A DNA stretch of 64,000 bases from a virus: IMG/VR virus record IMGVR_UViG_3300008516_000114, positions 1 through 64,000 of that record; one strand, 5' to 3'. Each line of letters begins with the position of its first letter. Within the stretch, counting starts at the first letter, position 1. A program made the translations under genes and the position numbers. Below are positions 1,176 to 59,840 of the stretch, one piece after another. The notes below the pieces were generated by a model. The model had not been told where the DNA came from, searched no databases, and was given only the letters and a program-made list of their open reading frames with translations.

Positions 1176-1286
1176 ATGAAGATAGATAATTATAATTTTG
1201 TTGTGGGAAGAGGTTGGAGTCGTATAGAAAGACGCAAAGAAGATTATACAGATGGTGATATACTTGCATTGGCACACACAAGATGA
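1176..1286 (+). CDS. 36-aa peptide translationally coupled to the helicase (not in ORF track)
   Basis: AAGGAG RBS, ATG at 1176, TGA overlapping the helicase ATG (ATGA); ends DILALAHTR. Confidence 0.45.
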   Translation: MKIDNYNFVVGRGWSRIERRKEDYTDGDILALAHTR

Positions 1287-2155
1287 ATTTAAATAAGCAA
1301 CAGCGAGAGATAATAGAATCTGGGCACAAGTGTATAGTAGTATCTGCCGGTGCCGGTACAGGTAAGACCAGGGTACTTACCGAGCGGATTAAATACCTAT
1401 TAGAAGTCAAGAAATATTCACATTATGATATACTTGCATTGACATTTACAAGATACGCTGCACAGGAGATGAAGAAAAGATTGGAAACAGCAAAAGTAGA
1501 AATTATGACCTTACATGCCTTTGCTTTGCATTGCCTGAAGCAATATGGTTCAAGCATAGGATTACACAAGAAAATTGATATCATAACAGAGACAGAGCGA
1601 GATAATATTATCAAATCAATAGCGGAAGATAGTGGGTTGAAAATAAAGAGAGACTTCAAATATTCAGAAATGATATGGGATATGAATAGTATAAAACCAG
1701 AATATAAGATTATAATATTAAACTATTGGCAGATTTTAAAGAAATACGAATTAATGGACTATGATAAATTGATTTTTGCTTTTAATGAATTATTGGATAA
1801 AGACGAATCTGCAAGAAATAAGTTGCGCAACAGGTATTTGCACATTTTAATCGATGAATTTCAGGATACCAATAATCATTTATGGGGTATTATTCAGAAG
1901 ATCAATCCTAAGAATCTATTTATTGTCGGTGATGTTGATCAGAGTCTTTATGCCTGGAATGGAGCAGAGCCTTATATTATGATAGAGTTAAGCCAAAATA
2001 GCAATTGGCAATTATACAAATTAGAGCGGAATTACCGTTGCCCCATCGATGTAATAACAGCAGTAAATAGCCTGATTCTCAAAAACGAGAAAAGAATTGA
2101 AAGGGAATTATTTACTAAGAATGAAAGAGAAGGATTGCTGGTTACTAATTGTTAA
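1283..2155 (+). CDS. UvrD/PcrA (SF1A) helicase, N-terminal half
   Basis: Walker A AGAGTGKT, motif Ia ILALTFT, Walker B IDEFQD, motif III VGDVDQSLYAW, motif IV LERNYR; stops before motifs IVa, V and VI. Confidence 0.92.
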   Translation: MNLNKQQREIIESGHKCIVVSAGAGTGKTRVLTERIKYLLEVKKYSHYDILALTFTRYAAQEMKKRLETAKVEIMTLHAFALHCLKQYGSSIGLHKKIDIITETERDNIIKSIAEDSGLKIKRDFKYSEMIWDMNSIKPEYKIIILNYWQILKKYELMDYDKLIFAFNELLDKDESARNKLRNRYLHILIDEFQDTNNHLWGIIQKINPKNLFIVGDVDQSLYAWNGAEPYIMIELSQNSNWQLYKLERNYRCPIDVITAVNSLILKNEKRIERELFTKNEREGLLVTNC

Positions 2156-2180
2156 TTATGAATTGTGAATTTTTAATTAA
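2146..2180 (+). repeat. Heptamer tandem array (T/G)AATTNT x5
   Basis: taattgt taattat gaattgt gaatttt taattaa; contains the stop codon of the helicase N-half. Confidence 0.85.
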
Positions 2181-2197
2181 AAGGAAGGAGATAGAAG

Positions 2198-56582: not shown

Positions 56583-56609
56583 TCTAATTATAAAAGAGGA
56601 TAAATAAAA

Positions 56610-59600
56610 TTGATAGCAGAAAAAACTTACTATTATAAGCTAAGACATAAAAACGCCCGTGGTGATCTATCAGATTATTCTTCAGTGGAAAATGCAGCAT
56701 CACTAGCTGAAGCGAGTGATAATAATACATTATCAATTAAATGTCAATGCGGTGATAGAAAATTAAATATTAACACAGCTTATTATAAAATTGGAGATTC
56801 TTTGATAATAGACGTTACATCTCAATTGCCATTAACAGCAGAACCCGTTGTAACAATAGATAATTATAATATAGGTGTGGCGGATAGTAGCACAACAGAT
56901 TATCTAAGCAATATATATTTACCTCTTCCTATAGCAGATTTTCAAAGGAGTAGTACAGCACAATCAGTAAATAATCCAGCAAAAACAGTAACGCTTGATG
57001 TGGGGGCATCTGCTGTCAATGATTTTTATAAAGATATGGTACTGGTAATGGATAATGAGCAACACAGAATTACTGCTTACAATGGAGACACAAAAGTTGC
57101 AACAGTAGAGGGTTCTCCAGCGTGGGGTGCAGGTACTTATCAGATTTATTTATATCACCAAGGCACGGTGATATTAAAAGCAACAGCAACAGTAAAGCAG
57201 GGTGGTACTTCGATACAGACAGAAGTTGATATCATGCTTGATTTTATTGCACCAACAGTAACAGGAACGCCTATTATCATAGATACAAAAAATAACGACC
57301 AAATACCAGAAAATGTACCCTATGCTTATAAAGCTGAGATGATATGGATATTTATTACCGATGATGTTTCAGATACAAGTGGCGATTCCAGCGAAGCAGC
57401 GGGGTTGAATAAAGTTTATTTACAGAATGCTTTTGTAGGATTAAGTACATCTACACCAGGCGATACTCTTGTGGATAGTGTATTGGCTAATATTTTTGAC
57501 GATGATTATTGGAACGATTATTATTTAACTGATTCCGGGGGTATGGTATATCAAATATTAAATTATATTGGTGCAACAGGAACATTTGAATTAGATGATA
57601 CTTGTGATGATGGTGTTTATTATGTAACAAAATATGATCCAACCGATACCGCTCATTATAGCGATTGGAAAAATTACGATGTTCAAAATTACCAAGTATT
57701 TAATTGGAATCTTACTATAGAGATGCCATATAATAAGGATGAGATTCCCGATACCGGGCAACCAGGAAATGGCGGTAGTGTAGGCGGAGAAGATGCGTAT
57801 CTTGATACAGACCATAAATATAAAGTGGTAGCAAGATTCACCGATAATGCTGAGAATTTTTCTAATATCTGTTCAGATGATATTTATCTAGATAAGACAC
57901 CACCATCATCACCAACAGAATTTACAGCCAAGGGAATGTTAGAATCTATTTTATTAACATGGCAAAATCCAGCCGATCTTGATTTAGATAAGATCAATAT
58001 TTATATGAGGGATCGTGAAGGTATATGTTCTGGAGGCATACCAACGAATTATGATAAAACTATTTATATACCCAATGCTATTCCAGATAAATATATGGAA
58101 TATACAATTTATTTTCAAGAACCCGACCCACAGCATAAATACTTTATATTAACAGCAATGGATAAAGCGGGTAATGAGAGTATTTGTTCAAGTGAAGAAG
58201 ATGCAATATCATTTGGCCATTGGGGCAAGATATTCAGGAACTGGCTGGATAATTCATCTTTCGAGAGAACTGTGCCTAGCGATGCTAATTTACCAGTTAG
58301 TCTTCTTAAATCAGGCTCTCCGACAGTAGAAACTTCATCTCAATATGGTAGTAATAGCATTTTAGTTGATCAGAATGATTATTACTACTATGATTATATG
58401 TGGTTACCTGCAAGTCCCGATACATATTTCTTCACTTTTAGTGTTTATGCAAGATATGATACAAATTGTCAAGCTAAAATAGAGATAAAGTTTTATGATT
58501 CAAATGGAGACCAAACAGGTTCTACTATTACTTTATTAACAGGAAATGAATTAGGGGATTCTTTAACTGATACCTTTGTACGCTATCATGCACATTTCGG
58601 CGTTGAGGGCAATACCATACCATCTGATACTACATCTGCAAAGATTTATTTCAAATCTGATAGCGATACGAATAAAGCTTATTATGATGCCGTCCAATGG
58701 GAACAAGTTACTGCTATTGATTCAGATCCCACAGATTATGTAGAAGGCAGGGTAATATCCGGCGATAGAATGATGGCTCATTTTATACGTGGTGATCATA
58801 TAGAATTTGATACGATGATTGGTAATCATTTCAAAGCGGTTTCGATTCAAACAAGCAAATTAGAAATAGCCAGCGGTGAAAATCTTGTGCCTAATTCAGC
58901 ATTTGAATCAGATTTTGCATACTGGACATACGATGCTGATTTCAGTTTGAGTGATACTCGTATAGTCTATGGAAAACAATGTGCCAAATTAGTATTAGCA
59001 AGCGCTGAGGGTTATTTAAAATCCGATTATTGTCCTATTAAGCAAGATGCTGATTATTGCATAAGTTTCTATTATTATCTTGATGCTTTGGGTGATGATC
59101 TATATTTCAAATTAGAGCAATATGATAAAGCCCATGTTATAGGTACGACTACTACAATGAAATCCTCCAATTTTACAGAGGATGCTTGGACAAGATTTGA
59201 ATATCAAATGACTGTTTTTGATGCTGATGCTGCTTATGTGAAAATTTATATTTTATGTGAGGAAGATGGATTAGCCACCACTGGTTATTTTGATGCTTTC
59301 CAGATAGAGCAAATCGCATCAGCTACGCAGGGTGCAAGTGATTATAAAGGGAAAACCAGGATAGTTGGCGAGGAAATTACAGCGGGTAAGATTCAATCAG
59401 CCGATGAAAAGACTTATTTTGATCTGGATAATTCTGTAATTGTTCTCGATCATCCAACAGCAGATGTTAAAACTGTATTAAAATCTGATTATCTTGCAAA
59501 GACTTTTGACGGAACTAATTATCATAAATATCCAGTTGTTATAGTAGCAACCACAACAGCAGAGGCAGATGGTAGCTTGGAGTATTCTTTATGGTGGAAT

Positions 59601-59840
59601 GCCGGAGCGACTGATGTTTTCAATTTAGGTAGTCGAGCAGAATATATGAATTTATACATAGTATCAGTTTTGGAGAAGGAGACGGGTTGGGATGTATATC
59701 AAAATTATAAAGCACTTGCCAATGATATTAAAATGCATCAGAGTGTAGAATTAGATGGAGTAGCAATTACTGCAGCAGCTGGTACTTTCACTAACAATGC
59801 TGATATTAGAATAGTGTTTTTAAGTTCTATAACATGGTAA
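56610..59840 (+). CDS. Large tail/receptor-binding protein beginning with FN3 strands F-G; further FN3 and CBM-like domains
   Basis: TTG start with GAGGA RBS; KTYYYKLR..N..G..S.YS; DKTPPSSPT..ILLTW FN3; NLVPNSAFE CBM4/9-like. Confidence 0.75.
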   Translation: MIAEKTYYYKLRHKNARGDLSDYSSVENAASLAEASDNNTLSIKCQCGDRKLNINTAYYKIGDSLIIDVTSQLPLTAEPVVTIDNYNIGVADSSTTDYLSNIYLPLPIADFQRSSTAQSVNNPAKTVTLDVGASAVNDFYKDMVLVMDNEQHRITAYNGDTKVATVEGSPAWGAGTYQIYLYHQGTVILKATATVKQGGTSIQTEVDIMLDFIAPTVTGTPIIIDTKNNDQIPENVPYAYKAEMIWIFITDDVSDTSGDSSEAAGLNKVYLQNAFVGLSTSTPGDTLVDSVLANIFDDDYWNDYYLTDSGGMVYQILNYIGATGTFELDDTCDDGVYYVTKYDPTDTAHYSDWKNYDVQNYQVFNWNLTIEMPYNKDEIPDTGQPGNGGSVGGEDAYLDTDHKYKVVARFTDNAENFSNICSDDIYLDKTPPSSPTEFTAKGMLESILLTWQNPADLDLDKINIYMRDREGICSGGIPTNYDKTIYIPNAIPDKYMEYTIYFQEPDPQHKYFILTAMDKAGNESICSSEEDAISFGHWGKIFRNWLDNSSFERTVPSDANLPVSLLKSGSPTVETSSQYGSNSILVDQNDYYYYDYMWLPASPDTYFFTFSVYARYDTNCQAKIEIKFYDSNGDQTGSTITLLTGNELGDSLTDTFVRYHAHFGVEGNTIPSDTTSAKIYFKSDSDTNKAYYDAVQWEQVTAIDSDPTDYVEGRVISGDRMMAHFIRGDHIEFDTMIGNHFKAVSIQTSKLEIASGENLVPNSAFESDFAYWTYDADFSLSDTRIVYGKQCAKLVLASAEGYLKSDYCPIKQDADYCISFYYYLDALGDDLYFKLEQYDKAHVIGTTTTMKSSNFTEDAWTRFEYQMTVFDADAAYVKIYILCEEDGLATTGYFDAFQIEQIASATQGASDYKGKTRIVGEEITAGKIQSADEKTYFDLDNSVIVLDHPTADVKTVLKSDYLAKTFDGTNYHKYPVVIVATTTAEADGSLEYSLWWNAGATDVFNLGSRAEYMNLYIVSVLEKETGWDVYQNYKALANDIKMHQSVELDGVAITAAAGTFTNNADIRIVFLSSITW

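Follow-up and report, generated by a model that had tools for sequence, protein, structure and literature searches.

A helicase gene, a tail protein gene and probably a fibre gene in pieces in a metagenomic phage genome

How can a phage use proteins whose genes are cut in two by other genes? The question is raised by the IMG/VR viral record IMGVR_UViG_3300008516_000114, a contig of 89,683 bp, of which we analysed the first 64 kb (positions 1 to 64,000, hereafter "the window"). An earlier note, made from the sequence alone, had pointed to three pairs of open reading frames (ORFs), for a UvrD-like helicase, a tail protein with an FN3 domain and a fibre, and had proposed that each pair was a single protein interrupted by cargo genes. 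All ORFs of the three pairs were found at the coordinates it gave. We consider it probable that the helicase, the tail protein and, as a likely third case, the fibre are encoded by genes in pieces, the halves being translated separately and reassembled non-covalently, not rejoined. The breaks are codon-exact, unsplit relatives exist, and the same breakpoints occur in diverged relatives. That the halves are translated as separate chains, bind each other and work is what we infer.

The tail protein is encoded on the + strand by an N half at 52274-53479 (401 aa), which breaks off after strand E of a domain with the FN3 fold, and by a C half at 56610-59840 (1076 aa, TTG start). Residues 5-32 of the C half correspond to the FN3 strands F and G; beyond them come central domains that are conserved and a distal part that varies. 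Between the halves lies insert 2 (53477-56609, + strand, 3133 nt), placed exactly between two tail-gene codons. The N-half stop codon lies within it, followed by a 49-aa ORF (53553-53702, + strand), by the fibre gene, itself split by a further insert, and by the ribosome-binding site for the C half. The unsplit orthologue in the metagenome contig L005 was collinear codon by codon with 52274-53476 plus 56610 onward, without loss or gain of a single residue; the C half begins, with its TTG, where the orthologue has a Leu codon. The gene order in L005 is syntenic, with a 1596-aa gene followed directly by one 2484-aa tail gene. This bears out the proposal that the two window ORFs make up one continuous tail protein.

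A search with the tail C half gave three relatives, P0002, P0003 and P0004, and no close relatives of this half were found in phage records and IMG/VR. P0004 (1814 aa) had both halves in one chain, its residues 1-393 matching the N half with 57% identity and its residues 397-478 corresponding to C-half residues 3-83. P0003 was also continuous through the joint. P0002, with 73% identity in the core and 60% in the first 107 residues, began at exactly the same residue as the window C half. Because of this common start, the tail split would predate the divergence of P0002, and the C half would have stayed open since.

An exhaustive profile search with the tail N half gave 55 hits including the query itself. 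We examined 19 of the 54 others, picked for matches near the end of the N half. The joint was clearly continuous in 14 of them (including L005 and P0004) and ambiguous in one. Three cluster representatives (P0008, P0010 and P0019) ended 10-17 residues after FN3 strand B, and P0024 ended before the domain. The ends of P0008, P0010 and P0019 may represent a second, independent break of the same FN3 domain in other phages.

The L005 orthologue (L005:7887-15341) encodes 2484 aa, compared with 1814 aa in P0004, to which it is nearly identical. A near-perfect tandem duplication of ~1986 nt (~662 aa), seen as ORF shadows with that period, accounts for the excess and is either real or an assembly artefact. 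The beginning of insert 2, ahead of the 49-aa ORF, contains GATAACTTAA twice in exact form, 27 nt apart (53489-53498 and 53516-53525). As a genome-wide site this pair was rejected, with 12 matches (up to one mismatch) in the window against 10.4 expected.

The domain that is cut was called FN3 in the earlier note, and this assignment holds by predicted fold and not by Pfam. Pfam fn3 gave no match on the tail halves, nor on five unsplit relatives at E<=0.1. The orthologous L005 domain, modelled with an alignment, was predicted to be a seven-strand sandwich with a model confidence (pLDDT) above 90 over the domain, with the tail joint in the loop between the fifth (72-76) and sixth (83-91) strands. 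Foldseek returned 198 PDB matches for this model at E<=0.001, with FN3 domains on top. The best template modelling score (TM) by target was 0.81, the value obtained for 4n68 (root-mean-square deviation 2.3) and for contactin-5.

We modelled the FN3 pair, and only this pair, as a complex of N-half residues 300-401 and C-half residues 1-110, together with three controls. The interface score (ipSAE) was 0.64, compared with 0.00 for the best control; a mark of 0.64 was attained by 58 of 80 solved complexes and by two of 110 mismatched pairs. At least 94% of the contacts were common between runs, with a partner pLDDT of at least 52, and the modelled contact placed C-half residues 5-32 against N-half residues 371-378. 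Solved structures include many FN3 folds, so that the pass chiefly tells us that the two pieces together resemble one FN3 domain; it supports their predicted binding without showing it. A second partner for the open FN3 domain was considered and rejected, as only one ORF in the whole genome begins with the F-strand pattern.

The helicase pair lies near the start of the window, also on the + strand. The N half of a UvrD/PcrA-like helicase (1283-2155, 290 aa) carries the N-terminal ATPase domain, ends in TAA and matches PF00580 over positions 1-269 of 271 (E 8e-58). The C half (2898-3710, 270 aa) has its own AAGGA ribosome-binding site and ATG, and matches PF13361 over positions 263-348 of 350. 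With PF00580 on the N-half ORF, and PF13361 and PF13538 on the C-half ORF, the UvrD/PcrA superfamily 1 layout is spread across the two ORFs, and the helicase motifs are divided between them. On the phrog_1967 profile the halves occupied adjoining parts, 151-460 and 479-679. The PDB matches were to PcrA, UvrD and Rep. Against the solved structures, N-half residues 2-281 aligned to PcrA 11-316, and the C half aligned from its residue 22 onward, starting at residue 355 of Deinococcus UvrD. Three distant unsplit homologues from IMG/VR (L008, L011 and L022; 546-640 aa) had both halves back to back, at 12-323 and 337-623 in L008. Judging from these alignments, almost nothing appears to be missing between the halves, in agreement with the proposal that they are one UvrD. 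The cut had also been described as falling in mid-domain. One profile is indeed spread over both ORFs. By the domain limits of Escherichia coli UvrD, the N half would hold roughly the first 40 residues of domain 2A, and the cut would be inside 2A.

The helicase halves are separated by insert 1 (2156-2897, + strand, 742 nt), consisting of an 82-aa ORF (2198-2446, + strand) with no family and no relatives, a non-coding stretch of 194 nt (2447-2640), and an 86-aa ORF (2641-2901, + strand) with a CxxC...CxxC pattern and a basic tail. The TGA of the latter overlaps the ATG of the helicase C half. No match to endonuclease, transposase or recombinase families was found in insert 1. A structured RNA at 2447-2640 was rejected, as the fold was no better than that of shuffles (z -1.4), and a hairpin at ~2604-2634 was not called as a terminator by the terminator scan.

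Helicase C halves that stand alone were also found elsewhere. Among 302 proteins of 148-473 aa matching the helicase C half, four metagenomic ones (P0061-P0064, 266-296 aa) had 44-57% identity over 94-97% of its length. They started within about 8 residues of the window C-half start and were carried on 7.7-17 kb contigs from several sources. Five sequences had 77 invariant columns in common. By their sequences, stand-alone helicase C halves are a conserved family, and because of this the helicase split would be old and maintained. Close-family members were also sought with the C-half alignment in IMG/VR and species genomes, which gave only distant helicases matching the last motifs. Unsplit relatives, and others with the same breakpoints, as the earlier note had proposed to look for, were thus found for the tail protein (L005 and P0004; P0002) and for the helicase (L008, L011 and L022; P0061-P0064).

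Two further UvrD_C-only proteins, P0071 (370 aa) and P0162 (307 aa), were 27% identical to the C half and had a common start ~40 residues further upstream. They may form a second stand-alone C-half family with a different cut. The stand-alone C half P0062 and P0183, a fragment of the unsplit tail protein, carried source names of metagenome-assembled genomes (MAGs) of Candidatus Marinimicrobia. These names hint at the host group of this lineage of phages, unless contigs of phages were merely binned into the MAGs.

The fibre pair lies inside the interruption of the tail gene, as had been noted, its extent of 53706-56582 being within insert 2. The N piece (53706-53909, + strand, 67 aa) had a weak likeness to the N-terminus of a cyanophage KBS-S-2A fibre (tblastn E 0.07) and to phrog_27494 (E 0.028), and its Atlas leads were tail-fibre N-termini. 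The collagen-like C piece (55167-56582, + strand) matched PF01391 (E 1.9e-39) and phrog_5073 (E 7e-89). An ATG at 55161 would be open as well, but 55167 is the best start, as the motif stays in register from there. The cargo of insert 3, between the two pieces, is a fused family-2 glycosyltransferase and S-adenosylmethionine methyltransferase (53929-55182, + strand; PF00535 E 8.5e-11, PF08241 E 8.4e-07). Its ORF is open from 53896, its ATG at 53929 has an AAGGAG site, and its 3' end overlaps the start of the fibre C piece. No unsplit close relative of the fibre was found, either among longer proteins like the 67-aa piece or with the C-terminal 151 aa in phage records. At the level of the motif, a split of the fibre gene is probable.

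At least two glycosyltransferase genes are present in the phage, the one within the fibre gene and one at 26637-27836 matching phrog_7162. Virion glycosylation is a possible common theme of the two.

How would such genes make working proteins? In the reading we favour, three genes that were once intact each received a cassette of foreign genes at a position exactly between two codons. Each cassette would have brought a stop for the 5' piece and translation signals for the 3' piece, so that each 3' piece would be translated alone from a start at the joint. The pieces would then pair as proteins, with no rejoining. They would reassemble because each cut is inside a folded domain, one piece supplying strands that the other lacks. 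In the tail protein, the remnant of five FN3 strands with which the N half ends would be completed by strands F and G, donated by the C half. In the helicase, the two chains would have to pair in order to work, because the ATPase site needs both halves. The fibre is probably the same kind of case. The cut positions suggest why the splits are tolerated, as strands of one domain held by the other piece would give a tight joint.

The pieces of all three pairs are long open frames in a genome of 33.6% G+C, and in each pair both ORFs are intact and equipped with a stop and a start of their own. Every 3' piece was confirmed to have a start of its own: AAGGA and ATG for the helicase, TTG with a ribosome-binding site for the tail protein, and ATG for the fibre. 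The overlap of the last inserted gene with the 3' piece, claimed for two of the pairs, was also seen, as ATGA at 2898-2901 in the helicase and as the end of the glycosyltransferase ORF at 55182, inside the fibre C ORF. All three 5' pieces do end in TAA, but this is uninformative and was rejected as a signal, since 43 of the 71 long + strand ORFs end in TAA.

Several points weigh against reassembly of separately made halves. Between the tail N half and L005, the proportion of non-synonymous differences (pN) was 0.30 and that of synonymous differences (pS) 0.83, which indicates constraint, not specifically after the split. The TTG of the tail C half has a long spacer of 10 nt after the ribosome-binding site. 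N halves beside P0002 and P0061-P0064 are assumed. The complex model can pass simply because the predictor has learned the FN3 fold. For the fibre, the statistics of the split are weak (E 0.07 in tblastn, E 0.054 across the joint), and a stand-alone ORF of 69 aa in Serratia phage Totoro is like the N piece (E 0.05).

The last of these bears on a different account of the third pair, which takes the 67-aa ORF for a small virion gene in its own right and the collagen ORF for a whole fibre, and puts the motif they share down to coincidence. In agreement with this account, no longer protein was related to the 67-aa ORF, its phage matches were only weak, the Totoro ORF stands alone, and the nearest Atlas clusters were small proteins of 48-86 aa. 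Against it, the 67-aa ORF stops inside the motif, and three uninterrupted copies (one near the collagen ORF's own C-terminus and two in the cyanophage KBS-S-2A fibre) go on with the same spacing. The collagen ORF opens with the next residues of the motif, in register, and the gap is one gene with its end overlapping the second piece. The earlier claim that the pair joins in one repeat was therefore supported by the register of the motif, but not by strong statistics or an unsplit close relative, and we regard the independent account of this pair as possible but rather doubtful. For all pairs, the pieces could also be leftovers that no longer work with a partner, with the tail N half alone at the baseplate and the C half attached otherwise, or with a dead helicase. 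The proteins P0008, P0010 and P0019, ending soon after strand B, and P0024, ending before the domain, show that N parts without a full FN3 domain may exist alone. This explanation is improbable, as all pieces have remained long open frames at this G+C content, P0002 and 14 unsplit relatives conserve the strands with which the tail C half begins and which it would donate, the stand-alone helicase C halves have their 77 invariant columns among five sequences, and the helicase motifs are shared out between the halves.

Continuous proteins would also be restored if the halves were rejoined, whether by splicing of the RNA (with the insert as a group I or II intron), by ribosomes bypassing a long stretch, by ligation of the proteins, or by excision from the DNA in the course of infection, and the codon-exact position of the inserts is like that of introns and inteins. 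Rfam at gathering score found only a tRNA, and intron families gave no match at E<=10 over both insert regions. Group II introns have characteristic ends and group I introns a terminal G; insert 2, which starts with TAAAAG and ends with A, fits neither. There are zero extra residues at the tail joint compared with L005, and the helicase halves abut on the unsplit homologues, leaving no residues for a split intein. Direct or inverted repeats were not found at the insert boundaries, and neither Pfam nor PHROGs gave HNH, GIY-YIG or other nuclease, recombinase or transposase families in any insert ORF. The absence of intein, intron, repeat, transposase and recombinase at the junctions, as read from the sequence in the earlier note, was thus upheld by all these checks. 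The inserts of 742-3133 nt contain translated genes, and the separate start of each 3' half is retained in relatives. The record was contained in four sequencing runs, marine-sediment metagenomes from one study and two samples, possibly the contig's own source, with no RNA data set listed among them. No Logan contig from the four runs skipped an insert, and the only joints seen fell in collagen repeats with unlike flanks. Excised molecules, put forward earlier as a possible route, thus found no support, with the limit that contigs drop rare variants and a rare excised form could escape this check. Of the two routes considered in the earlier note, complementary fragments were favoured by the codon-exact breaks, the separate starts, the recurrent breakpoints and the FN3 model, while the unrecognised rejoining found no support and is very unlikely. 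The contig is assembled from metagenomic reads, and if the four runs are its own source they are a less independent check on an assembly chimera. Nevertheless, the Logan contigs, made by a different assembler, reproduced every tail joint with 0 differences in four runs from two samples, at ~9x and ~200x word depth, which speaks against the misassembly at the junctions that the earlier note had allowed for. Moreover, P0002, from another data set, has the same tail breakpoint, and the stand-alone helicase C halves come from several sources. We consider a chimera extremely unlikely.

The viral record has 99-bp direct terminal repeats and a G+C content of 33.6%, and the + strand carries nearly all genes of the window. 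A close relative of the window was not found in phage records. Between the tail genes, directly upstream of a 1592-aa tail protein gene, Rfam and ARAGORN agreed on a tRNA-Met (CAT) at 47106-47180. A Pfam search of ten other large ORFs showed no further split genes, and promoter and terminator scans of the window were no better than shuffles. A foreign composition of the cargo was rejected, as its G+C and third-position G+C were like those of the flanks.

The class to which these splits belong is already known; this case is unusual in that no mobility gene is recognisable, that a structural protein is hit, that the cargo is large and that one split is nested in another. In T4-like phages, genes in pieces include nrdA of Aeromonas phage Aeh1, split by mobE, T4 genes 39/60 with mobA, and gene 43 of phages 25 and 44RR; the split NrdA and gp43 are reported to be working enzymes, and the insert of 44RR has no homing endonuclease gene (PMC2988022). 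The window resembles these cases in that a gene continuous in relatives is cut into two ORFs by inserted DNA, and overlapping stop and start codons at the joints occur there too (PMC2988022). It differs in having no homing endonuclease or mobility gene in any of its three inserts, in the cut of a structural tail protein inside the FN3 fold, and in a 3.1-kb insert that itself holds a split gene. A second comparison is with the "fractured genes" carrying split inteins (Dassa et al. 2009, PMC2677866), which, in the portion of that article available to us, are mostly phage-derived metagenomic loci with a conserved replication or repair enzyme broken in two and a free-standing gene between the parts. 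One SbcD-like fractured locus had no intein, and UvrD was not named among the enzyme types in that portion (PMC2677866). Compared with the loci described there, the window pieces have no intein residues, are collinear with unsplit relatives, and have no endonuclease gene. Among the titles and opening lines of abstracts returned by keyword searches of an incomplete literature library, none concerned a split FN3 tail protein or a split UvrD, which is weak evidence of absence.

The predicted joint of the tail protein recalls a known way of closing an incomplete fold. In chaperone-usher pili, an Ig-like sandwich with missing strands takes up the N-terminal extension of the following polypeptide in their place (donor-strand complementation), giving a very stable non-covalent joint. 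The tail protein would differ in donating two strands, F and G, in having arisen by fission of one gene, and in having no evident chaperone, and its interaction is predicted from a model. An FN3 domain cut in two is said, by the title of a 2005 work of Dutta, Batori, Koide and Koide, to reassemble with high affinity, in an engineered laboratory construct.

The cargo may be "parked" in these genes on purpose, as the earlier note proposed. As a speculation that we hold only tentatively, mid-domain fission could even be a selected design, with the FN3 remnant as a socket and the F-G hairpin as a plug, giving a tight non-covalent joint. The tail would then be made of an adaptor and an exchangeable receptor-binding module, and the gap would be a protected, co-expressed slot for swapping fibre and glycosylation genes. 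The relatives of the tail N half that stop after strand B hint that the FN3 domain was opened more than once.

When a phage gene is found split, it is usually put down to annotation noise, to a pseudogene or to the scar of a homing endonuclease. Here, three splits occur in one genome, one nested in another, two of them with breakpoints conserved in diverged relatives and none with a recognisable mobility gene. For annotation, such pairs should be treated as one functional unit, and the gaps between them are worth examining as places where accessory genes are picked up. If the strand donation is true, a cut inside a domain is compatible with assembly in structural proteins as well as in enzymes, and a natural split FN3 domain would be a ready-made protein-joining pair.

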